Positions 1 to 21,704 of a DNA stretch of 21,704 nucleotides are shown here, in pieces. The notes below the pieces were generated by a model. That model did not search any database. It saw only the letters and a program-made list of their open reading frames with translations, and was not told where the DNA came from. Source of the stretch: a virus (taxonomy: Duplodnaviria; Heunggongvirae; Uroviricota; Caudoviricetes; Drexlerviridae); IMG/VR virus record IMGVR_UViG_2534682080_000005; one strand, written 5' to 3'. The translations under genes and the position numbers were made by a program. Each line of letters starts with the position of its first letter. Positions within the stretch are counted from its first letter, which is position 1.

Positions 1-786
1 AAGCATGAAGTGAATCCGCAGATGACCCTGCGTCGCCTGCCGGATGAAGATCCGCAGAATCTGGCGGACCCGGCTTACCGCCGCCGTCGCATCATCATGC
101 AGAACATGCGTGACGAAGAGCTGGCCATTGCTCAGGTCGAAGAGATGCAGGCAGTTTCTGCCGTGCTTAAGGGCAAATACACCATGACCGGTGAAGCCTT
201 CGATCCGGTTGAGGTGGATATGGGCCGCAGTGAGGAGAATAACATCACGCAGTCCGGCGGCACGGAGTGGAGCAAGCGTGACAAGTCCACGTATGACCCG
301 ACCGACGATATCGAAGCCTACGCGCTGAACGCCAGCGGTGTGGTGAATATCATCGTGTTCGATCCGAAAGGCTGGGCGCTGTTCCGTTCCTTCAAAGCCG
401 TCAAGGAGAAGCTGGATACCCGTCGTGGCTCTCATTCCGAGCTGGAGACAGCGGTGAAAGACCTGGGCAAAGCGGTGTCCTATAAGGGGATGTATGGCGA
501 TGTGGCCATCGTCGTGTATTCCGGACAGTACGTGGAAAACGGCGTCAAAAAGAACTTCCTGCCGGACAACACGATGGTGCTGGGGAACACTCAGGCACGC
601 GGTCTGCGCACCTATGGCTGCATTCAGGATGCGGACGCACAGCGCGAAGGCATTAACGCCTCTGCCCGTTACCCGAAAAACTGGGTGACCACCGGCGATC
701 CGGCGCGTGAGTTCACCATGATTCAGTCAGCACCGCTGATGCTGCTGGCTGACCCTGATGAGTTCGTGTCCGTACAACTGGCGTAA
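1..786 (+). CDS. E: Major capsid protein E, 3' portion (5' end lies upstream of the window)
   Basis: Frame is open from nt 1 to the stop at 784-786; the translation ends ...MIQSAPLMLLADPDEFVSVQLA, which I recognise as the C-terminus of lambda gpE. Position immediately upstream of FI fits lambda gene order. Confidence 0.9.
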   Translation, partial: KHEVNPQMTLRRLPDEDPQNLADPAYRRRRIIMQNMRDEELAIAQVEEMQAVSAVLKGKYTMTGEAFDPVEVDMGRSEENNITQSGGTEWSKRDKSTYDPTDDIEAYALNASGVVNIIVFDPKGWALFRSFKAVKEKLDTRRGSHSELETAVKDLGKAVSYKGMYGDVAIVVYSGQYVENGVKKNFLPDNTMVLGNTQARGLRTYGCIQDADAQREGINASARYPKNWVTTGDPAREFTMIQSAPLMLLADPDEFVSVQLA

Positions 787-827
787 TCATGGCCCTTCGG
801 GGCCATTGTTTCTCTGTGGAGGAGTCC

Positions 828-1226
828 ATGACGAAAGATGAACTGATTGCCCGTCTCCGCTCGCTGGGTGAACAACTGAACCGTGATGTCAGCCTGACGG
901 GGACGAAAGAAGAACTGGCGCTCCGTGTGGCAGAGCTGGAAGAGGAGCTTGATGACACGGATGAAACTGCCGGTCAGGACACCCCTCTCAGCCGGGAAAA
1001 TGTGCTGACCGGACATGAAAATGAGGTGGGATCAGCGCAGCCGGATACCGTGATTCTGGATACGTCTGAACTGGTCACGGTCGTGGCACTGGTGAAGCTG
1101 CATACTGATGCACTTCACGCCACGCGGGATGAACCTGTGGCATTTGTGCTGCCGGGAACGGCGTTTCGTGTCTCTGCCGGTGTGGCAGCCGAAATGACAG
1201 AGCGCGGCCTGGCCAGAATGCAATAA
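828..1226 (+). CDS. FI: DNA-packaging protein FI
   Basis: ATG at 828 preceded by GGAGG (819-823); 132 codons, matching lambda FI length; translation MTKDELIARLRSLGEQLN... recognised as FI. The ORF-track start at 789 is probably an upstream in-frame extension. Confidence 0.85.
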   Translation: MTKDELIARLRSLGEQLNRDVSLTGTKEELALRVAELEEELDDTDETAGQDTPLSRENVLTGHENEVGSAQPDTVILDTSELVTVVALVKLHTDALHATRDEPVAFVLPGTAFRVSAGVAAEMTERGLARMQ

Positions 1227-1237
1227 CGGGAGGCGCT

Positions 1238-1591
1238 GTGGCTGATTTCGATAACCTGTTCGATGCTGCCATTGCCCGCGCCGATGAAACGATACGCGGG
1301 TACATGGGAACGTCAGCCACCATGACATCCGGTGAGCAGTCAGGTGCGGTGATACGTGGTGTTTTTGATGACCCTGAAAATATCAGCTATGCCGGACAGG
1401 GCGTGCGCGTTGAAGGCTCCAGCCCGTCCCTGTTTGTCCGGACTGATGAGGTGCGGCAGCTGCGGCGTGGAGACACGCTGACCATCGGTGAGGAAAATTT
1501 CTGGGTAGATCGGGTTTCGCCGGATGATGGCGGAAGTTGTCATCTCTGGCTTGGACGGGGCGTACCGCCTGCCGTTAACCGTCGCCGCTGA
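1238..1591 (+). CDS. FII: Head-tail joining / head completion protein FII
   Basis: GTG start at 1238 after GGGAGG; 117 codons; translation MADFDNLFDAAIARADETIRGYMG... recognised as lambda FII. Confidence 0.85.
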   Translation: MADFDNLFDAAIARADETIRGYMGTSATMTSGEQSGAVIRGVFDDPENISYAGQGVRVEGSSPSLFVRTDEVRQLRRGDTLTIGEENFWVDRVSPDDGGSCHLWLGRGVPPAVNRRR

Positions 1592-1602
1592 AAGGGGGAT
1601 GT

Positions 1603-2185
1603 ATGGCCATAAAAGGTCTTGAGCAGGCCGTTGAAAACCTCAGCCGTATCAGCAAAACGGCGGTGCCTGGTGCCGCCGCAATGGCCATTAACCGCGTTGC
1701 TTCATCCGCGATATCGCAGTCGGCGTCACAAGTTGCCCGTGAGACAAAGGTACGCCGGAAACTGGTAAAGGAAAGGGCCAGGCTGAAAAGGGCCACGGTC
1801 AAAAATCCGCAGGCCAGAATCAAAGTTAACCGGGGGGATTTGCCCGTAATCAAGCTGGGTAATGCGCGGGTTGTCCTTTCGCGCCGCAGGCGTCGTAAAA
1901 AGGGGCAGCGTTCATCCCTGAAAGGTGGCGGCAGCGTGCTTGTGGTGGGTAACCGTCGTATTCCCGGCGCGTTTATTCAGCAACTGAAAAAATGGCCGGT
2001 GGCATGTCATGCAGCGTGTGGCCGGGAAAAAACCGTTACCCCATTGAATGTGGTGAAAAATCCCGATGGCGGTGCCGCTGACCACGGCGTTTAAACAGAA
2101 TATTGAGCGGATACGGCGTGAACGTCTTCCGAAAGAGCTGGGCTATGCGCTGCAGCATCAACTGAGGATGGTAATAAAGCGATGA
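1603..2185 (+). CDS. Z: Tail completion protein Z, reading frame interrupted (frame 1 to 2094, C-terminal 30 codons in the next frame to 2185)
   Basis: N-terminal 130 aa (MAIKGLEQAVENLSRISKTAVPG...) recognised as lambda Z. The C-terminal segment ...[34 protein letters not shown] is readable only in the next frame and ends at the TGA overlapping the U start (ATGA at 2182-2185). Total span is 583 nt versus 579 expected for 192 aa plus stop, consistent with four 1-nt insertions in A-containing runs between about 1985 and 2062. Confidence 0.8.
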
Positions 2186-2577
2186 AACATACTGAACTCC
2201 GTGCAGCCGTACTGGATGCACTGGAGAAGCATGACACCGGGGCGACGTTTTTTGATGGTCGCCCCGCTGTTTTTGATGAGGCGGATTTTCCGGCAGTTGC
2301 CGTTTATCTCACCGGCGCTGAATACACGGGCGAAGAGCTGGACAGCGATACCTGGCAGGCGGAGCTGCATATCGAAGTTTTCCTGCCTGCTCAGGTGCCG
2401 GATTCAGAGCTGGATGCGTGGATGGAGTCCCGGATTTATCCGGTGATGAGCGATATCCCGGCACTGTCAGATTTGATCACCAGTATGGTGGCCAGCGGCT
2501 ATGACTACCGGCGCGACGATGATGCGGGCCTGTGGAGTTCAGCCGATCTGACTTATGTCATTACCTATGAAATGTGA
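2182..2577 (+). CDS. U: Tail tube terminator protein U
   Basis: 131 codons; ATG overlaps the Z stop; translation [26 protein letters not shown]... recognised as lambda U. Confidence 0.9.
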
Positions 2578-2584
2578 GGACGCT

Positions 2585-3325
2585 ATGCCTGTACCAAATC
2601 CTACAATGCCGGTGAAAGGTGCCGGGACCACCCTGTGGGTTTATAAGGGGAGCGGTGACCCTTATGCGAATCCGCTTTCAGACGTTGACTGGTCGCGTCT
2701 GGCAAAAGTTAAAGACCTGACGCCCGGCGAACTGACCGCTGAGTCCTATGACGACAGCTATCTCGATGATGAAGATGCAGACTGGACTGCGACCGGGCAG
2801 GGGCAGAAATCTGCCGGAGATACCAGCTTCACGCTGGCGTGGATGCCCGGAGAGCAGGGGCAGCAGGCGCTGCTGGCGTGGTTTAATGAAGGCGATACCC
2901 GTGCCTATAAAATCCGCTTCCCGAACGGCACGGTCGATGTGTTCCGTGGCTGGGTCAGCAGTATCGGTAAGGCGGTGACGGCGAAGGAAGTGATCACCCG
3001 CACGGTGAAAGTCACCAATGTGGGACGTCCGTCGATGGCAGAAGATCGCAGCACGGTAACAGCGGCAACCTGCATGACCGTGACGCCTGCCAGCACCTCG
3101 GTGGTGAAAGGGCAGAGCACCACGCTGACCGTGGCCTTCCAGCCGGAGGGCGTAACCGACAAGAGCTTTCGTGCGGTGTCTGCGGATAAAACAAAAGCCA
3201 CCGTGTCGGTCAGTGGTATGACCATCACCGTGAACGGCGTTGCTGCAGGCAAGGTCAACATTCCGGTTGTATCCGGTAATGGTGAGTTTGCTGCGGTTGC
3301 AGAAATCACCGTCACCGCCAGTTAA
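2585..3325 (+). CDS. V: Major tail tube protein V, with C-terminal Ig-like (Big_2-type) domain
   Basis: ATG at 2585 after TGAGGA (2575-2580); 246 codons; translation [31 protein letters not shown]... recognised as lambda V. The ORF-track start at 2555 is an upstream extension overlapping U. Confidence 0.9.
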
Positions 3326-3340
3326 TCCGGGGAGTCAGAG

Positions 3341-3763
3341 ATGTTCCTGAAAACCGAATCATTTGAACATAACGGTGTGACCGTCACGCTTTCTGAACTG
3401 TCAGCCCTGCAGCGTATTGAGCATCTCGCCCTGATGAAACGGCAGGCAGAACAGGCGGAGTCAGACAGCAACCGGAAGTTTACTGTGGAAGACGCCATCA
3501 GAACCGGCGCGTTTCTGGTGGCGATGTCCCTGTGGCATAACCATCCGAAGAAGACAAAGCTGCCTTCCATGAATGAAGCCGTTAAACAGATTGAGCAGGA
3601 AGTGCTTACCACCTGGCCCACGGAGGCAATTTCTCATGCTGAAAACGTGGTGTACCGGCTGTCCGGTATGTATGAGTTTGTGGTGAATGATGCTCCTGAA
3701 CAGACAGAGGACGCCGGGCCTGCAGAGCCTGTTTCTGCGGGAAAGTGTTCGATGGTGAGCTGA
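3341..3763 (+). CDS. G: Tail assembly chaperone G
   Basis: 140 codons; RBS GGGGAG upstream; translation MFLKTESFEHNGVTVTLSELSALQRIEHL... recognised as lambda G; ends ...AGKCSMVS just after the slippery heptamer. Confidence 0.9.
   Translation: MFLKTESFEHNGVTVTLSELSALQRIEHLALMKRQAEQAESDSNRKFTVEDAIRTGAFLVAMSLWHNHPKKTKLPSMNEAVKQIEQEVLTTWPTEAISHAENVVYRLSGMYEFVVNDAPEQTEDAGPAEPVSAGKCSMVS
3739..3745 (+). promoter_or_regulatory. Programmed -1 ribosomal frameshift slippery heptamer G GGA AAG (G to G-T fusion)
   Basis: GGGAAAG lies in the G frame as G|GGA|AAG, 6 codons before the G stop; the -1 frame opens directly after it and encodes T-like sequence (VFDGELSFALKLAREMGRPDWRAMLAG...). This is the conserved G-T frameshift of lambda-like tail operons. 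Confidence 0.8.
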
Positions 3764-4176
3764 GTTTTGCCCTGAAACTGGCGCGAGAGATGGGGCGACC
3801 CGACTGGCGTGCCATGCTTGCCGGGATGTCATCCACGGAGTATGCCGACTGGCACCGCTTTACAGTACCCATTATTTCATGATGTTCTGCTGGATATGCA
3901 CTTTTCCGGCTGACGTACACCGTGCTCAGCCTGTTTTTCAGCGATCCGGATATGCATCCGCTGGATTTCAGTCTGCTGAACCGGCGTGAGGCTGACGAAG
4001 AGCCTGAAGATGATGTGCTGATGCAGAAAGCGGCAGGGCTTGCCGGAGGCGTCCGCTTTGGCCCGGAAGGGAATGAAGTTATCCCCGCTTCCCCGGATGT
4101 GGCGGACATGACGGAGGATGACGTAATGCTGATGACAGTATCAGAAGGGATCGCAGGAGGAGTCCGGTATGGCTGA
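3745..4176 (+). CDS. T: Tail assembly protein T segment of the gpG-T frameshift product; frame locally disrupted at about 3859-3910 with an in-frame TGA at 3880-3882
   Basis: The -1 frame after the slippery site gives T-like sequence; the C-terminal 84 aa (ORF 3922..4176, ...SLFFSDPDMHPLDFSLLNRREADEEPEDDVLMQKAAGLAGGVRFGPEGNEV...GGVRYG) are recognised as the lambda T C-terminus and end 8 nt into H, as in lambda. Between 3859 and 3910 three apparent 1-nt run-length deletions (TTTT>TTT, CC>C, GGG>GG) scramble about 17 codons and create a stop. The G-start to T-end distance is 3 nt shorter than in lambda. Confidence 0.75.
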
Positions 4177-6728
4177 ACCGGTAGGCGATCTGGTCGTTGA
4201 TTTAAGTCTGGATGCGGCCAGATTTGACGAGCAGATGGCCAGAGTCAGGCGTCATTTTTCCGGTACGGAAACTGATGCGAAAAAAACAGCGGCAGTCGTT
4301 GAACAGTCGCTGAGCCGACAGGCGCTGGCTGCACAGAAAGCGGGGATTTCCGTCGGGCAGTATAAAGCCGCCATGCGTATGCTGCCTGCACAGTTCACCG
4401 ACGTGGCCACGCAGCTTGCAGGCGGGCAAAGTCCGTGGCTGATCCTGCTGCAACAGGGGGGTCAGGTGAAGGACTCCTTCGGCGGGATGATCCCCATGTT
4501 CCGGGGGCTTGCCGGTGCGATCACCCTGCCGATGGTGGGGGCTACCTCGCTGGCGGTGGCGACCGGAGCGCTGGCGTATGCCTGGTATCAGGGCAACTCA
4601 ACCCTGTCCGATTTCAACAAAACGCTGGTCCTTTCCGGCAATCAGGCGGGACTGACGGCAGATCGTATGCTGGTCCTGTCCAGAGCCGGGCAGGCGGCAG
4701 GGCTGACGTTTAACCAGACCAGCGAGTCACTCAGCGCACTGGTTAAGGCGGGGGTAAGCGGTGAGGCTCAGATTGCGTCCATCAGCCAGAGTGTGGCGCG
4801 TTTCTCCTCTGCATCCGGCGTGGAGGTGGACAAGGTCGCTGAAGCCTTCGGGAAGCTGACCACAGACCCGACGTCGGGGCTGACGGCGATGGCACGCCAG
4901 TTCCATAACGTGACGGCGGAGCAGATTGCGTATGTTGCTCAGTTGCAGCGTTCCGGCGATGAAGCCGGGGCATTGCAGGCGGCGAACGAGGCCGCAACGA
5001 AAGGGTTTGATGACCAGACCCGCCGCCTGAAAGAGAACATGGGCACGCTGGAAACCTGGGCAGACAGGACAGCACGGGCATTCAAATCCATGTGGGATGC
5101 GGTGCTGGATATTGGTCGTCCTGATACCGCGCAGGAGATGCTGATTAAGGCAGAGGCCGCGTTTAAGAAAGCGGACGATATCTGGAATCTGCGCAAGGAT
5201 GATTATTTTGTTAACGATGAAGCGCGGGCGCGTTACTGGGATGATCGTGAAAAGGCCGTCTTGCGCTTGAAGCCGCCGAAAGAAGGCTGAGCAGCAGAGT
5301 CAACAGGACAAAAATGCGCAGCAGCAGAGCGATACCGAAGCGTCACGGCTGAAATATACCGAAGAGGCGCAGAAGGCTTATGAACGCCTGCAGACGCCGC
5401 TGGAGAAATATACCGCCCGTCAGGAAGAACTGAACAAGGCACTGAAAGACGGGAAAATCCTGCAGGCGGATTACAACACGCTGATGGCGGCGGCGAAAAA
5501 GGATTATGAAGCGACGCTGAAAAAGCCGAAACAGTCCGGCGTGAAGGTGTCTGCGGGCGACCGTCAGGAAGACAGTGCTCATGCTGCCCTGCTGACGCTT
5601 CAGGCAGAACTCCGGACGCTGGAGAAGCATGCCGGAGCAAATGAGAAAATCAGCCAGCAGCGCCGGGATTTGTGGAAGGCGGAGAGTCAGTTCGCGGTAC
5701 TGGAGGAGGCGGCGCAACGTCGCCAGCTGTCTGCACAGGAGAAATCCCTGCTGGCGCATAAAGATGAGACGCTGGAGTACAAACGCCAGCTGGCTGCACT
5801 TGGCGACAAGGTTACGTATCAGGAGCGCCTGAACGCGCTGGCGCAGCAGGCGGATAAATTCGCACAGCAGCAACGGGCAAAACGGGCCGCCATTGATGCG
5901 AAAAGCCGGGGGCTGACTGACCGGCAGGCAGAACGGGAAGCCACGGAACAGCGCCTGAAGGAACAGTATGGCGATAATCCGCTGGCGCTGAATAACGTCA
6001 TGTCAGAGCAGAAAAAGACCTGGGCGGCTGAAGACCAGCTTCGCGGGAGCTGGATGGCAGGCCTGAAGTCCGGCTGGAGTGAGTGGGAAGAGAGCGCCAC
6101 GGACAGTATGTCGCAGGTAAAAAGTGCAGCCACGCAGACCTTTGATGGTATTGCACAGAATATGGCGGCGATGCTGACCGGCAGTGAGCAGAACTGGCGC
6201 AGCTTCACCCGTTCCGTGCTGTCCATGATGACAGAAATTCTGCTTAAGCAGGCAATGGTGGGGATTGTCGGGAGTATCGGCAGCGCCATTGGCGGGGCTG
6301 TTGGTGGCGGCGCATCCGCGTCAGGCGGTACAGCCATTCAGGCCGCTGCGGCGAAATTCCATTTTGCAACCGGAGGATTTACGGGAACCGGCGGCAAATA
6401 TGAGCCAGCGGGGATTGTTCACCGTGGTGAATTTGTCTTCACGAAGGAGGCAACCAGCCGGATTGGCGTGGGGAATCTTTACCGGCTGATGCGCGGCTAT
6501 GCCACCGGCGGTTATGTCGGTACACCGGGCAGCATGGCAGACAGCCGGTCGCAGGCGTCCGGGACGTTTGAGCAGAATAACCATGTGGTGATTAACAACG
6601 ACGGCACGAACGGGCAGATAGGTCCGGCTGCTCTGAAGGCGGTGTATGACATGGCCCGCAAGGGTGCCCGTGATGAAATTCAGACACAGATGCGTGATGG
6701 TGGCCTGTTCTCCGGAGGTGGACGATGA
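4169..6728 (+). CDS. H: Tail tape measure protein H; frame interrupted near 5255-5286 (ORFs 4169..5290 and 5484..6728 are one gene)
   Basis: Both long ORFs are recognised as contiguous parts of lambda gpH (N-term MAEPVGDLVVDLSLDAARFDEQMARVRRHF...; C-term ...MRDGGLFSGGGR). The downstream frame is open back to 5271. Span is 2560 nt versus 2562 expected for 853 aa plus stop, consistent with two 1-nt deletions (GCCC>GCC near 5257, AAAG>AAG near 5283). AGGAGG RBS precedes the ATG. Confidence 0.85.
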
Positions 6729-7054
6729 AGACCTTCCGCTGGAAAGTGAAACCCGGTATGGATGTGGCTTCGGTCCCTTCTGTAAGAAAGGTGCGCTTTG
6801 GTGATGGCTATTCTCAGCGAGCGCCTGCCGGGCTGAATGCCAACCTGAAAACGTACAGCGTGACGCTTTCTGTCCCCCGTGAGGAGGCCACGGTACTGGA
6901 GTCGTTTCTGGAAGAGCACGGGGGCTGGAAATCCTTTCTGTGGACGCCGCCTTATGAGTGGCGGCAGATAAAGGTGACCTGCGCAAAATGGTCGTCGCGG
7001 GTCAGTATGTTGCGTGTTGAGTTCAGCGCAGAGTTTGAACAGGTGGTGAACTGA
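6725..7054 (+). CDS. M: Tail tip assembly protein M
   Basis: 109 codons; start overlaps the H stop; translation MKTFRWKVKPGMDVASVPSVRKVRFGDGYSQRAPAG... recognised as lambda M. Confidence 0.9.
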   Translation: MKTFRWKVKPGMDVASVPSVRKVRFGDGYSQRAPAGLNANLKTYSVTLSVPREEATVLESFLEEHGGWKSFLWTPPYEWRQIKVTCAKWSSRVSMLRVEFSAEFEQVVN

Positions 7055-7753
7055 TGCAGGATATCCGGCAGGAAACACTGAATGAATGCACCCGTGCGGA
7101 GCAGTCGGCCAGCGTGGTGCTCTGGGAAATCGACCTGACAGAGGTCGGTGGAGAACGTTTATTTTTCTGTAATGAGCAGAACGGAAAAGGTGAGCCGGTC
7201 ACCTGGCAGGGGCGACAGTATCAGCCGTATCCCATTCAGGGGAGCGGTTTTGAACTGAATGGCAAAGGCACCAGTACGCGCCCCACGCTGACGGTTTCTA
7301 ACCTGTACGGTATGGTCACCGGGATGGCGGAAGATATGCAGAGTCTGGTCGGCGGAACGGTGGTCCGGCGTAAGGTTTACGCCCGTTTTCTGGATGCGGT
7401 GAACTTCGTCAACGGAAACAGTTACGCCGATCCGGAGCAGGAGGTGATCAGCCGCTGGCGCATTGAGCAGTGCAGCGAACTGAGCGCGGTGAGTGCCTCC
7501 TTTGTACTGTCCACGCCGAACGGAAACGGATGGCGCTTGTTTTCCGGGACGTATCATGCTGGCCAACACCTGCACCTGGACCTATCGCGGCGATGAGTGC
7601 GGTTATAGCGGTCCGGCGGTCGCGGATGAATATGACCAGCCGACGTCCGATATCACGAAGGATAAATGCAGCAAATGCCTGAGTGGCTGTAAGTTTCGCA
7701 ATAATGTCGGCAACTTTGGCAGCTTCCTTTCCATTAACAAACTTTCGCAGTAA
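7054..7753 (+). CDS. L: Tail tip protein L; frame interrupted near 7519 (ORFs 7054..7596 and 7493..7753 are one gene)
   Basis: N-terminal 155 aa and C-terminal 75 aa (including the Cys-rich ...CTWTYRGDECGYSGPAVADEYDQPTSDITKDKCSKCLSGCKFRNN...) are recognised as lambda L in two frames. Span is 700 nt versus 699 expected for 232 aa plus stop, consistent with one inserted A at about 7519-7520 (CCGAACGG). Start overlaps the M stop (TGATG). Confidence 0.85.
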
Positions 7754-7758
7754 ATCCC

Positions 7759-8501
7759 ATGACACAGACAGAATCAGCGATTCTGGCGCACGCCCGGCGA
7801 TGTGCGCCAGCGGAGTCGTGCGGCTTCGTGGTAAGCACGCCGAGGGGGAAAGATATTTTCCCTGCGTGAATATCTCCGGTGAGCCGGAGGCGTATTTCCG
7901 TATGTCGCCGGAAGACTGGCTGCAGGCAGAAATGCAGGGTGAGATTGTGGCGCTGGTCCACAGCCACCCCGGTGGTCTGCCCTGGCTGAGTGAGGCCGAC
8001 CGGCGGCTGCAGGTGCAGAGTGATTTGCCGTGGTGGCTGGTCTGCCGGGGGACGATTCATAAGTTCCGCTGTGTGCCGCATCTCACCGGGCGGCGCTTTG
8101 AGCACGGTGTGACGGACTGTTACACACTGTTCCGGGATGCTTATCATCTGGCGGGGATTGAGATGCCGGACTTTTATCGTGAGGATGACTGGTGGCGTAA
8201 CGGCCAGAATCTCTATCTGGATAATCTGGAGGCGACGGGGCTGTATCAGGTGCCGTTGTCAGCGGCACAGCCGGGCGATGTGCTGCTGTGCTGTTTTGGT
8301 TCATCAGTGCCGAATCACGCCGCAATTTACTGCGGCGACGGCGAGCTGCTGCACCATATTCCTGAACAACTGAGCAAACGAGAGAGGTACACCGACAAAT
8401 GGCAGCGACGCACACACTCCCTCTGGCGTCGCCGGGCATGGCGCGCATCTGCCTTTACGGGGATTTACAACGATTTGGTCGCCGCATCGACCTTCGTGTG
8501 A
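7759..8501 (+). CDS. K: Tail tip assembly protein K (MPN/JAB + NlpC/P60). Residues from Met at 7902 form an intact 199-codon frame; the N-terminal 29 codons from ATG 7759 are in a different frame
   Basis: Frame 0 (7902..8501) encodes ...VALVHSHPGGLPWLSEADRR... (JAB H-x-H motif) and ...GVTDCYTLFRDAYHLAG... (NlpC/P60-type Cys), and overlaps I by 103 nt as lambda K does. ATG 7759, directly after L, encodes MTQTESAILAHARRCAPAESCGFVVSTP with the E-x-C-G JAMM-type N-terminal motif, but in frame 1, which stops at 7867-7869; joining the two needs a 1-nt change near 7842-7850. Confidence 0.75.
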
Positions 8502-9070
8502 AAACGGGGGCTGAAGCCATCCGGGCACTGGCCACACAGCTCCCGGCGTTTCGTCAGAAACTGAGCGACGGCTGGTATCAGGTACGGATTGCCGGGCGGG
8601 ACGTCAGCACGTCCGGGTTAACGGCGCAGTTACATGAGACTCTGCCTGATGGCGCTGTGATTCATATTGTTCCCAGAGTCGCCGGGGCCAAGTCAGGTGG
8701 CGTATTCCAGATTGTCCTGGGGGCTGCCGCCATTGCCGGATCATTCTTTACCGCCGGAGCCACCCTTGCAGCATGGGGGGCAGCCATTGGGACCGGTGGT
8801 ATGACCGGCATCCTGTTTTCTCTCGGTGCCAGTATGGTGCTCGGTGGTGTGGCGCAGATGCTGGCACCGAAAGCCAGAACTCCCCGTACACAGACAACGG
8901 ATAACGGTAAGCAGAACACCTATTTCTCCTCACTGGATAACATGGTTGCCCAGGGCAATGTTCTGCCTGTTCTGTACGGGGAAATGCGCGTGGGGTCTCG
9001 CGTGGTTTCTCAGGAGATCAGCACGGCAGACGAAGGGGACGGTGGTCAGGTTGTGGTGATTGGTCGCTGA
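8399..9070 (+). CDS. I: Tail tip assembly protein I
   Basis: 223 codons; translation MAATHTLPLASPGMARICLYGDLQRFGRRIDLRVKTGAEAIRALATQLP... recognised as lambda I; begins inside the 3' end of K. Confidence 0.9.
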   Translation: MAATHTLPLASPGMARICLYGDLQRFGRRIDLRVKTGAEAIRALATQLPAFRQKLSDGWYQVRIAGRDVSTSGLTAQLHETLPDGAVIHIVPRVAGAKSGGVFQIVLGAAAIAGSFFTAGATLAAWGAAIGTGGMTGILFSLGASMVLGGVAQMLAPKARTPRTQTTDNGKQNTYFSSLDNMVAQGNVLPVLYGEMRVGSRVVSQEISTADEGDGGQVVVIGR

Positions 9071-9088
9071 TGCAAAATGTTTTATGTG

Positions 9089-9115
9089 AAACCGCCTGCG
9101 GGCGGTTTTGTCATT
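9089..9115 (+). terminator. Intrinsic terminator or attenuator hairpin between I and J
   Basis: AAACCGCC (9089-9096), loop TGCG, GGCGGTTT (9101-9108), then a T-rich tail; perfect 8-bp GC-rich stem read directly from the sequence. Confidence 0.55.
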
Positions 9116-9130
9116 TATGGAGCGTGAGGA

Positions 9131-18614: not shown

Positions 18615-19748
18615 CTAAAGTCGGTTTTTTTCTTCGTTTTCTCTAACTATTTTCCATGAAATACATTTTTGATTATTATTTGAATCAATTCCAATTACCT
18701 GAAGTCTTTCATCTATAATTGGCATTGTATGTATTGGTTTATTGGAGTAGATGCTTGCTTTTCTGAGCCATAGCTCTGATATCCAAATGAAGCCATAGGC
18801 ATTTGTTATTTTGGCTCTGTCAGCTGCATAACGCCAAAAAATATATTTATCTGCTTGATCTTCAAATGTTGTATTGATTAAATCAATTGGATGGAATTGT
18901 TTATCATAAAAAATTAATGTTTGAATGTGATAACCGTCCTTTAAAAAAGTCGTTTCTGCAAGCTTGGCTGTATAGTCAACTAACTCTTCTGTCGAAGTGA
19001 TATTTTTAGGCTTATCTACCAGTTTTAGACGCTCTTTAATATCTTCAGGAATTATTTTATTGTCATATTGTATCATGCTAAATGACAATTTGCTTATGGA
19101 GTAATCTTTTAATTTTAAATAAGTTATTCTCCTGGCTTCATCAAATAAAGAGTCGAATGATGTTGGCGAAATCACATCGTCACCCATTGGATTGTTTATT
19201 TGTATGCCAAGAGAGTTACAGCAGTTATACATTCTGCCATAGATTATAGCTAAGGCATGTAATAATTCGTAATCTTTTAGCGTATTAGCGACCCATCGTC
19301 TTTCTGATTTAATAATAGATGATTCAGTTAAATATGAAGGTAATTTCTTTTGTGCAAGTCTGACTAACTTTTTTATACCAATGTTTAACATACTTTCATT
19401 TGTAATAAACTCAATGTCATTTTCTTCAATGTAAGATGAAATAAGAGTAGCCTTTGCCTCGCTATACATTTCTAAATCGCCTTGTTTTTCTATCGTATTG
19501 CGAGAATTTTTAGCCCAAGCCATTAATGGATCATTTTTCCATTTTTCAATAACATTATTGTTATACCAAATGTCATATCCTATAATCTGGTTTTTGTTTT
19601 TTTGAATAATAAATGTTACTGTTCTTGCGGTTTGGAGGAATTGATTCAAATTCAAGCGGAATAATTCAGGGTCAAAATATGTATCAATGCAGCATTTGAG
19701 CAAGTGCGATAAATCTTTAAGTCTTCTTTCCCATGGTTTTTTAGTCAT
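18615..19748 (-). CDS. Hypothetical protein, 377 aa (386 aa if started at 19775); AT-rich accessory gene in the b-region-equivalent slot
   Basis: Long uninterrupted minus-strand ORF in ~30% GC DNA, contrasting with the ~55% GC tail genes. Likely start is ATG at 19748 (MTKKPWERRL...) preceded by GGAGAG; the alternative ATG at 19775 lacks an obvious RBS. No Walker, PD-(D/E)xK, HNH or other motif that I can identify by eye. Confidence 0.7.
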   Translation of the reverse strand: MTKKPWERRLKDLSHLLKCCIDTYFDPELFRLNLNQFLQTARTVTFIIQKNKNQIIGYDIWYNNNVIEKWKNDPLMAWAKNSRNTIEKQGDLEMYSEAKATLISSYIEENDIEFITNESMLNIGIKKLVRLAQKKLPSYLTESSIIKSERRWVANTLKDYELLHALAIIYGRMYNCCNSLGIQINNPMGDDVISPTSFDSLFDEARRITYLKLKDYSISKLSFSMIQYDNKIIPEDIKERLKLVDKPKNITSTEELVDYTAKLAETTFLKDGYHIQTLIFYDKQFHPIDLINTTFEDQADKYIFWRYAADRAKITNAYGFIWISELWLRKASIYSNKPIHTMPIIDERLQVIGIDSNNNQKCISWKIVRENEEKNRL

Positions 19749-20578
19749 AAAACTCTCCATTTTGATAGGTTGCATGCTAGATGCTGATATATTTTAGAGG
19801 TGATAAAATTAACTGCTTAACTGTCAATGTAATACAAGTTGTTTGATCTTTGCAATGATTCTTATCAGAAACCATATAGTAAATTAGTTACACAGGAAAT
19901 TTTTAATATTATTATTATCATTCATTATGTATTAAAATTAGAGTTGTGGCTTGGCTCTGCTAACACGTTGCTCATAGGAGATATGGTAGAGCCGCAGACA
20001 CGTCGTATGCAGGAACGTGCTGCGGCTGGCTGGTGAACTTTCGATAGTGCGAGTATTGAATGATTTCCAACTGTTATCGATTTTGCGTATTTTTTGCATG
20101 AGAGGATTTTTACCTCCTCCCACCGATCCTCCATGGCTTTACGCCAGTGTCTCTGGTCTGCTATGTGCCAGGAGCAGCCATTGCTAAGTCCATCCTGTAT
20201 TGTGCAGGTCAGCTCGTTTTTAAAGAGTCCGGCCATCATCTTACTGGTACAGACACCATATACTTTGTGACGGTCAGGCTACATATGCACAACTCAACTT
20301 ATTCATCTATTTTTTGCTTTAGCATGTCAGTGTTGCTTTCTCGTCGGCGGGTGAGCGGTGACCTGACCTGTCGATAAAGGAACGTAGCACGTTTTATGCA
20401 ACACCCGCATGCGGCAGAAAATTATTGCCGAACGTTTACCCCTGTCAACAAGCTTTACTTTCTGAGGCGCGCCAGCCCGCGAGGAAAACAATCTGAACAT
20501 CAAACAATTAATGACACAAGAAATACGATTAAAGATTTTTTGTGCATGCCGATAGTGCTTTTTTAAAAGGAGAAATCT

Positions 20579-20773
20579 ATGTCTGTCACAATTCAGGGAA
20601 ATACCTCAACCGTTATTTCAAACAACTCCGCCCCGGAAGGAACATCAGAAATAGCCAAAATCACAAGACAAATTCAGGTGCTGACTGAAAAGCTTGGGAA
20701 AATCTCATCGGAAGAGGGGATGACGACACAGCAAGAAAAAAGAAATGGCTGCATTGGTACAGAAGCAAATTGA
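20579..20773 (+). CDS. Hypothetical small protein; may continue through an A-run frameshift into the adjacent 53-codon frame (20745..20906)
   Basis: Strong RBS AAAGGAG 7 nt upstream of ATG 20579. A second frame (ATG 20745, MAALVQKQIESLRAQLEQLLRQQAEKKNED...IDIYV, stop 20904-20906) begins inside the A7 run at 20735-20742 and ends just before a terminator hairpin. The two frames are joinable by a 1-nt run-length change. Confidence 0.45.
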   Translation: MSVTIQGNTSTVISNNSAPEGTSEIAKITRQIQVLTEKLGKISSEEGMTTQQEKRNGCIGTEAN

Positions 20774-20926
20774 AAGCCTCAGGGCTCAACTGGAGCAGTT
20801 GTTAAGGCAGCAGGCAGAGAAAAAGAATGAAGACGCGACAGTTCAGCCTGATAAAAAAGAAGAGAAAAAAGACGATACAAATACCGCTGGCACCATTGAT
20901 ATTTACGTCTAAGTGACAGCCGTATT

Positions 20927-20950
20927 GTGGCCCTCATCGGGCCACTTTTC
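20927..20950. terminator. Putative intrinsic terminator
   Basis: GTGGCCC (20927-20933), loop TCATC, GGGCCAC (20939-20945), then TTTT; about 20 nt downstream of the small-gene stop. Confidence 0.55.
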
Positions 20951-21272
20951 GCCATCAGCCTTTTCTTTAAAGACATATTATCTTTGTATCATTTCTGATA
21001 GTTAACATTACAAGATATAAGTAATGGACGCACTCCCAATTAGTCTATTTAAATCGCCACGAGTTTAACTGACAACCCATGATCAATTATGAATTGCAAC
21101 TATTTCTGTAGTCACTTTTGTGGGGACAGTCCACAAAACTGCCAACTTCCGCTTCTTGCTCATAGCGGACCTTACAACCACCTGATTGGTCCGCTCCGTG
21201 TCAGGAGCGGATACCGTAAGCATTTTATCCTCTGGAGGGGCATCCCTTTCAAGAAATGCATCCGTTGTGGAT

Positions 21273-21704
21273 TTATGCAACACCTGAAGCTACTAACAAA
21301 GAACAATTTGTCTGACCAAAGGCATTTTTTAGCAGCGGGAAAAGAGGGGGAAGTTCCGTTAGCGATTTTAGAGGCTTGAGGCTCTTAAGTGATTTAAGTG
21401 ATGGCAAATTAGGTGTGGTAACCATGTCTTTTACTGCACAGGCAACATAGCCATCGTGATCAATCAACATACCATTAGTAAACCAGCCTAAATGATTCCC
21501 ATTGAATCCATAAACATCAAACTCATTGTTCTGGTTATGTTTAAGGTAGGCGCTTGGTTCACCCTCCCAACTATATAAAGTCAACTCGTCATCAAGTGAA
21601 ATATAAACGACGGCGTTGCCTTGATTATCATATAGATCTAGGTCATTACTCGCAGTAACACAAGCTGAGAAAAGAAACATAACTAGCACGAGTGATTTTT
21701 TCAT
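21273..21704 (-). CDS. Hypothetical exported protein or lipoprotein (143 aa) with a C-terminal SLK-type tandem repeat
   Basis: ATG falls exactly at the window edge (21702-21704), so an upstream in-frame start cannot be excluded. N-terminus MKKSLVLVMFLFSACVTAS is a signal peptide with a possible lipobox-like FSAC. The C-terminal third is low-complexity (LPSLKSLKSLKPLKSLTELPPLFPLL). Confidence 0.5.
   Translation of the reverse strand: MKKSLVLVMFLFSACVTASNDLDLYDNQGNAVVYISLDDELTLYSWEGEPSAYLKHNQNNEFDVYGFNGNHLGWFTNGMLIDHDGYVACAVKDMVTTPNLPSLKSLKSLKPLKSLTELPPLFPLLKNAFGQTNCSLLVASGVA

Follow-up and report, generated by a model that had tools for sequence, protein, structure and literature searches.

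The AT-rich gene downstream of tfa in a lambda-like prophage, identified as ea47, is single-gene cargo with a possible host-protective role

The viral record IMGVR_UViG_2534682080_000005 (Drexlerviridae), a stretch of 21,704 nucleotides (nt) referred to below as the window, carries an AT-rich leftward open reading frame (ORF) directly beyond its lambda-type tail genes. An earlier note on this DNA had described the ORF as an orphan gene, possibly of a new family, and had suggested that it encodes an anti-phage, abortive-infection or superinfection-exclusion protein. We report here that the ORF is almost certainly ea47 of the phage lambda b region, that the one-base frameshift which truncates it in the window is probably an assembly artefact, and that ea47 belongs to a widespread family that behaves as single-gene mobile cargo. 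A host-protective function of the encoded protein is possible, and the evidence for and against it is weighed below.

The gene downstream of tfa and lambda ea47

The locus is formed by two converging genes:

17804..18388, + strand: tfa (tail fibre assembly), 194 amino acids (aa), the upstream neighbour that defines the cargo slot (ORF listing, homology)
18615..19775, − strand: the leftward ORF as listed for the window, 386 aa

The two frames are 226 base pairs (bp) apart. The guanine-plus-cytosine (GC) content of the ORF is 0.315, against 0.554 for positions 1–18388, and in the GC profile of the window the stretch 18400–19999 lies at 0.305–0.335 compared with 0.49–0.555 in the tail genes. The setting given in the earlier note, an AT-rich leftward gene at a distance of 226 bp from tfa that converges with the tail operon, is thus borne out, as is the AT-rich character of the region upstream of it.

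On sequence grounds, the ORF is almost certainly the phage lambda gene ea47 in its canonical position and orientation after tfa. The locus aligns to lambda 22558–24270 with 99.4% DNA identity over 1712 nt, and 15 further lambda-type records, HK629, HK630 and 4W among them, match it equally well. In lambda, ea47 occupies complement(22686..23918), directly after tfa (orf-194) and ahead of ea31, ea59 and attP. Residues 1–374 of Ea47 as encoded in the window are identical to NP_040606, and the protein matches phrog_19262 (function unknown) with an E-value of 5.5e-269 over profile positions 1–375 of 410, starting from residue 10 of the listed ORF. The closest protein-database match bears the tag PF26900, the Pfam family Phage_lambda_Ea47, and shows 100% identity across 99% of the query; every homologue in the large protein database carries the same tag, and a record of the Prokaryotic Genome Annotation Pipeline calls the product 'Ea47 family protein'.

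The gene is therefore already known, with a named Pfam family and a PHROG, and the labels 'orphan' and 'possible new family' do not hold: the ORF is lambda ea47, a member of PF26900 and PHROG 19262, with 456 close and 1,307 profile-level relatives. Scans of the ORF protein against Pfam-A, NCBIfam and PADLOC returned no match, the Pfam result being explained by PF26900 having been introduced after the Pfam copy scanned. A sub-threshold match to vRNAP_dom (E 0.03) was dismissed as noise. These blank scans fit the earlier observation that no familiar motif could be seen, and the accompanying statement that the protein is not an integrase, a transposase or a structural protein stands. The listed start at 19775, which gives the 386-aa form, was rejected in favour of the ATG at 19748 (MTKKPWERRL), where the PHROG profile and all homologues begin and which is preceded by a Shine-Dalgarno sequence.

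The likeness to lambda extends to the position after tfa, the orientation, the AT-rich upstream region with a promoter-like site, and a hairpin on the tfa-proximal side. The differences are that the window copy lacks one A in a run of eight, which turns the last 36 residues into N-R-L, and that ea31 and ea59 are not in the window prophage, where flxA and a '4-fold beta flower' gene are found instead. In lambda itself, ea31 and ea59 (24509–26973) carry the annotations HNH endonuclease and AAA family ATPase, respectively, a pairing reminiscent of two-gene defence systems.

The searchable literature treats ea47 as a non-essential b-region gene, a cargo insertion site and a CRISPR target. The gene scored as non-essential by CRISPR interference (PMC10695390), and it is routinely deleted together with ea31 and ea59 and replaced by cargo (PMC9674246). 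It is dispensable for lambda growth and lysogeny. We found no paper in the searchable literature that gives ea47 a function, and a literature search for 'PF26900' returned no paper. The earlier note had held that homology to an Ea protein with a known non-defensive role would tell against its proposal; the gene does encode an Ea protein, but no role is known for Ea47.

A one-base frameshift in the window copy

The copy of ea47 in the window is made up of the following parts:

18517..19748, − strand: the full ea47 footprint, 1232 nt here against 1233 nt in the intact gene
18615..19748, − strand: the frame as it stands, Ea47 residues 1–374 followed by N-R-L-stop, 377 aa (translation compared with lambda)
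18625..18631, − strand: the frameshift site, a homopolymer of seven A (A7) where lambda and the 99.9%-identical prophage of strain PS1Phumofeces1 have eight (A8) (alignment)
18517..18623, − strand: the out-of-frame 3′ remnant, in which the natural C-terminus PTLEISTADSKHDEKPYFMRSVLKAIGGDVNTMNN-stop is still encoded (translation)

The stop at 18615 is not the natural one. The natural ea47 stop lies at 18517–18519 and yields a 410-aa protein, with a gap of 128 bp to tfa; deletion of one nucleotide from the A8 run shifts the last 36 codons out of frame. The only other difference from lambda within ea47 is a synonymous change at 19659 (TTC/TTT, Phe30). The intact 410-codon frame is absent from the window copy, which encodes 374 native residues and three others. 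The lost tail contains P376, L378, F393, P396, A400 and G402, which are conserved in the family (column occupancy 98%), and it is predicted to form a strand and a helix in the structure model described below.

We compared the window with its closest relatives. Over positions 17625–21704 it is 99.5% identical to strain PS1Phumofeces1, with three single-base insertions or deletions (indels), two of which fall in T-runs and one of which splits flxA. Against the 98–99% identical CFS3313 prophage there are 21 indels, mostly of a single base, that interrupt L, K, J and other tail genes. Overall, ~24 indels, almost all single-base events and many within homopolymers, separate the window from prophages that are 98–99.5% identical to it. 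They are found at window positions 1054–17498 (e.g. 3858, 3874, 3907, 7519, 7841 and 11873) and at 18624, 20535 and 20733, and they split L (7054–7596), K, J (9131–11926 / 11884–12627) and flxA. Either the assembly of the window is error-prone or the prophage is decaying; with so many single-base indels, the lengths of ORFs in the window and its apparent pseudogenes are unreliable at face value.

The ea47 stretch itself matches 121 complete Escherichia coli genomes. The sole match at 100% identity, which shares the A7 run, is FELIX_MS516, whose annotation of that locus marks the tail-fibre and tfa genes as frameshifted and has ea47 in three pieces. The other 120 of the 121 genomes are less than 100% identical and, among the matches listed, show the one-base length difference expected of the A8 form. 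Because single-base indels are scattered across the window, and because the one genome that shares A7 has frameshifted neighbours, the change from A8 to A7 is probably an artefact of assembly.

The alternative is that the slip is real and that ea47 in the window is a true pseudogene of a decaying prophage, whose truncated 377-aa product does not function, an explanation that is compatible with the rival accounts of Ea47 function considered in the Discussion. The loss of 36 residues, including conserved positions and a strand and a helix of a confident model, speaks for it, and a cryptic prophage would be expected to show the kind of single-base interruptions seen in L, K, J and flxA. Yet these indels are single-base events that in many cases fall in homopolymers, and background substitutions amount to only ~0.5–1%; the only other genome with A7 is the one with its tail-fibre and tfa genes annotated as frameshifted and ea47 in pieces; and the remaining 120 genomes have, among the matches listed, the A8-form length. 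The overall pattern points to homopolymer miscalls by the sequencing technology, and we regard a true pseudogene as rather unlikely.

Distribution and genomic contexts of the Ea47 family

A word-indexed search returned 456 relatives of ~410 aa from Citrobacter, Vibrio, Shewanella, Photobacterium, Pectobacterium, Cronobacter, Aeromonas, Azoarcus and others. A profile search of 1.8 billion cluster representatives gave 1,307 clusters at E ≤ 1e-3, 401 of them at E ≤ 1e-30. Twenty loci in species-representative genomes, confirmed by tblastn, span the Gamma-, Beta- and Alphaproteobacteria, Cyanobium, Verrucomicrobia, Marinimicrobia and Actinomadura, the last with a homologue of 25% identity. At all 25 loci compared, the flanks have a higher GC content than the ea47 gene, with a mean difference of 11 points and a maximum of 31. 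No partner gene of the kind that would make ea47 half of a two-gene system is conserved in any context examined, and Ea47 therefore works as a single gene. The family thus behaves as single-gene mobile cargo, which agrees with the earlier description of the gene as a non-essential, compositionally foreign, single-gene insert in the lambda b-region slot after tfa.

The neighbourhoods of ~45 loci were surveyed, a small sample with crude ORF calling and no background control. Some homologues sit in prophages: between P and ninB (the nin region) of a Cronobacter lambdoid prophage, between gpV and gpS of a P2-like prophage, and in a Vibrio prophage right after the integrase, where a pair of unknown proteins comes next, one of 371 aa and an SMC_N-like one of 584 aa. 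Another Vibrio homologue lies inside an array of small DUF645 ORFs, which looks like a superintegron cassette array. In a Pectobacterium integrase island, the homologue keeps company with FRG, AbiTii, Hcp, DUF5677, Barstar, UvrD and a DprA + PRTase pair, a type of pair that has been validated as a defence system (PMC9122126). A Shewanella homologue adjoins an AbiL pair (AbiLi match 6e-89), and in Stenotrophomonas a HEC-05/PDC-M55C-like gene is nearby. In Frateuria sp. (8340–9890), the homologue lies immediately downstream of a Drt8-type defence reverse transcriptase (PADLOC E 3e-140), at a distance of 110 bp and in the same orientation, and the two might form an operon.

Profile scans of the neighbours gave a similar picture. 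Among 139 neighbour ORFs from 20 genome loci, Pfam identified four integrases, a resolvase, PLDc_2, RloB and AAA_21 amid ordinary metabolism, and PADLOC identified AbiLi, Drt8, TIR-TM, HEC-05 and three PDC candidate families. On 13 IMG/VR contigs, the neighbours include integrases, cI-type repressors, many P2-type tail genes, DUF2971 (twice), AAA_13 and a type I restriction-modification S subunit. The association of ea47 with defence genes is suggestive.

Structure model and conserved residues of Ea47

Intact Ea47 is a soluble protein of 410 aa and 48 kDa. An AlphaFold2 model built from a 99-sequence alignment has a predicted local distance difference test score of 88 and a predicted template modelling score of 0.87. 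It consists of four helices (residues 5–89), a β-rich insert (94–161), further helices and an α/β domain (~253–400). The four N-terminal helices form a bundle with conserved polar faces that include the invariant R83. The remaining ~300 residues have no solved structural relative, and a recognisable nuclease fold (PD-(D/E)xK or others) was not found in the C-terminal region of the model.

Across the broad family, down to 20–25% identity, ten positions are invariant (Y24, F30, R42, W61, W78, R83, S96, R150, W152 and L157) and a further twelve nearly so (R9, Q49, K52, D73, N84, K88, G90, D91, E161, E325, W327 and E347). The sharpest motif, W-A-x-x-(S/A)-R-N-x-I-E-K-x-G-D-L, lies on helix 4, where Ea47 of the window reads R83-N-T-I-E-K88. 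In 259 family proteins, position 84 is Asn in 252; position 87 is Glu in 214 and Val in 43; and position 88, five residues after the arginine, is Lys in 254 and His in 5. The His variants co-vary at positions 84 and 87 to give R-V-x-V-V-H. This minority form is a literal R-x4-H, and its Arg-to-His spacing fits the R-x(4–6)-H of HEPN domains. No His is invariant in the family and R-x(4–6)-H is not kept as a conserved motif.

HEPN-domain toxins and abortive-infection RNases (the HEPN-MNT toxins 7ae2, 5yep and 8xdj, and Csm6) count among the closest known systems. The full-length Ea47 profile had no match to PDB sequences at E ≤ 10. The profile of the N-terminal domain matched only a Borrelia-type helical 'surface protein' and CopM, which were rejected as compositional helix matches, and a weak-hit Pfam consensus scan of 99 members and 25 N-domains gave only scattered noise (Mvb12, PEARLI-4). 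A Foldseek search of BFVD with the Ea47 model returned only uncharacterised phage proteins of ~190 aa.

Fusions in distant relatives

In several distant PF26900 members of 850–945 aa, the N-terminal part is the Ea47 module, and behind it come a SEC-C zinc motif and TPR repeats, TPR-S among them. Effector followed by sensor is the usual domain order of TPR-sensor conflict proteins, and this architecture is typical of cellular conflict effectors rather than of small phage inhibitors. By position in the chain, the Ea47 module may be the effector part of these fusions. The gene of one relative of this branch, 945 aa long and tagged PF26900 only, is flanked by a Gabija-like pair, a GajA-like OLD/TOPRIM ATPase and a UvrD helicase, on one side and by HipBA on the other. 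The resemblance to effector-plus-TPR-sensor proteins is limited to such distant members, whereas Ea47 of the window, like most of the family, has neither a TPR nor a SEC-C part.

A different fusion occurs on one metagenomic contig (8001–11414), where an SMC_N/AAA_23 (RecN-like) gene is immediately followed by a single 1137-aa ORF in which the Ea47 module and a complete NAD-dependent DNA ligase are joined in frame. This single case may be a real fusion, or a product of stop loss or misassembly.

The cargo slot and its surroundings

The following elements flank ea47 in the window:

19753..19758, − strand: Shine-Dalgarno sequence GGAGAG, separated from the downstream ATG at 19748 by 4 nt (read from the sequence)
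19800..19827, − strand: candidate σ70-like promoter, with −35 TTGACA at 19822–19827, a 16-nt spacer and −10 TATCAC at 19800–19805
19776..20100, no strand assigned: AT-rich region upstream of ea47, homologous to lambda as far as ~lambda 24270 (alignment)
18404..18437, no strand assigned: strong hairpin in the gap where tfa and ea47 converge (−25 kcal/mol on folding, z = −4.4, none of 200 shuffles as stable)

The site equivalent to TTGACA-N16-TATCAC is annotated as a promoter in phage HK629, and the window site is weak evidence for a candidate ea47 promoter. The hairpin has no canonical T-run and a terminator scan of the region listed none; its location suggests that it may act as a two-way terminator for both convergent transcripts. 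Scans of the window with Rfam and for tRNAs found no RNA gene inside ea47. The 3′ half of tfa contains a full-length match (18147–18345, + strand, 221.6 bits) to the Rfam candidate small RNA family IS009 (RF02111).

Identity to lambda decays after ~20040–20100. Past this point the window continues, as in PS1Phumofeces1, with flxA and the 4-fold beta flower gene, and then host genes follow. In the 98%-identical prophage CFS3313, the corresponding post-tfa stretch (22510–24712) holds minus-strand DUF2971 and DUF4236 genes in place of ea47; the position after tfa is therefore a variable cargo slot. DUF2971 genes also adjoin Ea47 homologues in an enterobacterial island and, by Pfam count, are among the neighbours on the IMG/VR contigs. 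A stretch of ~100 bp (19989–20095) is 88–91% identical to HK106 and many Shiga toxin-converting phages, in which it lies near the end of the prophage record. Of 5,426 E. coli genomes, 3,344 match a 1.7-kb query that includes these ~100 bp, while ea47 itself is in only 121. This stretch may be a conserved recombination flank of the cargo slot.

The flxA-like gene (Pfam FlxA; 20579–20912, + strand) is split into 20579–20773 and 20745–20912 by a one-base insertion near 20733 and is intact (333 bp) in PS1Phumofeces1. The 4-fold beta flower gene (21273–21704, − strand; Pfam Bflower, E 5e-27) reaches the edge of the window. It is the last gene before the host LysR/pao genes in the closest genome, so the right end of the prophage is probably just past this gene.

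On the other side of tfa, the side tail-fibre gene (1152 aa; region 13361–17804) encodes a prophage tail-fibre N-domain and a C-terminal SGNH/GDSL hydrolase domain. It is followed by two small ORFs with no Pfam match (~16891–17130 and 17130–17447), the second of which opens, by eye, with a UmuD-like 'GFPSPAxDY' motif, and by a remnant of the lambda stf C-terminus (17532–17804). It would appear that the receptor-binding module has been exchanged here and that some lambda sequence was left behind.

Discussion

We propose the following role for Ea47. The gene would be a self-contained piece of mobile cargo that benefits the carrying cell and not the lytic cycle of the phage. The protein would be a conflict or defence effector directed at other phages or mobile elements, by way of superinfection exclusion or abortive infection. 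Its target would be nucleic acid, plausibly RNA, acted upon by the HEPN-like N-terminal bundle, in which R83 and K88 (His in a minority of relatives) might form a phosphate-handling site. The C-terminal region would then be a regulatory or trigger-sensing part, and sensing would be extended by the fused SEC-C and TPR repeats in distant relatives. The identification as ea47 joined to a host-protective effector role is the best overall explanation available, and we consider it evenly poised between right and wrong. A defence-type function as such is possible at somewhat less than even confidence, and a HEPN-like RNase mechanism is doubtful.

The proposal has precedents in the exclusion and conversion cargo of prophages (lambda rexAB, sieB, lom and bor; P2 old, tin and fun), which is likewise non-essential and occupies variable slots; relatives of ea47 are found in slots of P2-like and lambdoid prophages. 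Prophage defence hotspots have been established as a general principle (PMC9122126). The P2-type slots that hold ea47 homologues (between gpV and gpS, or beside gpU/gpD/ogr or tail-fibre/sheath genes) differ from the gpA–gpQ old/tin hotspot of that study.

A number of observations weigh against a host-protective effector. The copy that drew attention to the gene is formally frameshifted. Many ea47 loci, in Aeromonas and elsewhere, are lone insertions amid housekeeping genes, and a recognisable defence gene lies within four genes of ea47 at only about one third of the surveyed loci, a fraction that has no background control. The earlier note had called for a comparison with defence-system models, and in PADLOC-DB 2.0 no family matches Ea47 at E ≤ 1; this is a 2023 library and newer systems are outside it. 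As to mechanism, 98% of members, Ea47 of the window among them, have Lys at the position of the HEPN catalytic His; no HEPN family of Pfam was matched by 99 full-length members and 25 N-domains at permissive E-values; and no HEPN chain appeared in the profile searches of the PDB. The −10 element of the predicted ea47 promoter is imperfect and lacks the conserved final T, and a consensus scan did not list the site. No ea47 phenotype has been reported in the searchable literature. Finally, Ea47 came to notice as an early protein, expressed from pL in the lytic cycle, a history that suits a role in the service of the phage equally well.

The last point leads to the main rival explanation, in which Ea47 serves the phage as a delayed-early accessory protein expressed from pL and acts on the host as a counter-defence or host-takeover factor. 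Lambda has other early, dispensable proteins that act on the host, namely Gam and Ral, and the 'Ea' of the name comes from the classical lambda literature, where it records that the protein was detected early. The gene has the leftward orientation of the pL operon, whose int-xis and other genes precede it in lambda, its dispensability on standard laboratory hosts is what is usually seen with anti-defence genes, and the lambda interaction map contains low-confidence yeast two-hybrid matches of Ea47 to N and U (PMC3224144). This explanation accounts poorly for the homologues that are found far from any phage, as lone chromosomal insertions, in the integron-like array of Vibrio and in islands beside defence genes, or for the TPR sensor fusions of some homologues. 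Moreover, in the prophage state the att site would separate ea47 from pL. We regard a phage-serving role as unlikely.

Ea47 could also benefit the host in a way that has nothing to do with phage defence, for instance as a stress enzyme, a nucleic-acid repair or modification factor, or a regulator. The many metabolic and housekeeping neighbours, the lack of a match to any known defence model, and the in-frame fusion to a DNA ligase after a RecN-like gene would all be at home in such an explanation, and genes of widely differing function travel in integron cassettes and prophage cargo slots. The ligase fusion, however, is a single case that may reflect stop loss or an assembly artefact, and known or candidate defence genes recur near ea47 across unrelated taxa. 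The existence of TPR-S sensor fusions and the persistent AT-richness and patchy distribution of the family across phyla likewise tell against non-defence cargo, which we consider very unlikely. That the ORF is a chance open frame or a miscalled gene in AT-rich spacer DNA, for which its unusual composition and nothing else would speak, is excluded by a stop-free run of 392 codons against a maximum of 141 in 500 shuffles of that stretch (P(no stop) ~5e-15 at the composition of the ORF), by the ten invariant positions kept across phyla down to ~20–25% identity, and by the confident structure model.

In its most far-reaching form, the host-protective proposal would make PF26900 an unrecognised family of stand-alone anti-phage effectors with (i) a HEPN-derived bundle that has Lys in place of the catalytic His (and R-x4-H in ~2% of members), (ii) a C-terminal α/β sensor of novel fold, and (iii) a spread across phyla by way of cargo slots, integron cassettes and defence islands. 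We put this forward as a speculative and, on balance, unlikely possibility.

Ea47 has been known for decades as a protein without a function, and the present survey turns it into a concrete, cheaply testable hypothesis of host-protective cargo with named candidate active-site residues (R83, K88, R150, E325 and E347). If the hypothesis is false, ea47 remains a safe site for the insertion of cargo, as engineers already treat it. If it is true, Ea47 would add one more family to the known defence systems, possibly with a His-to-Lys variant of HEPN, and would explain why lambda keeps its b region.

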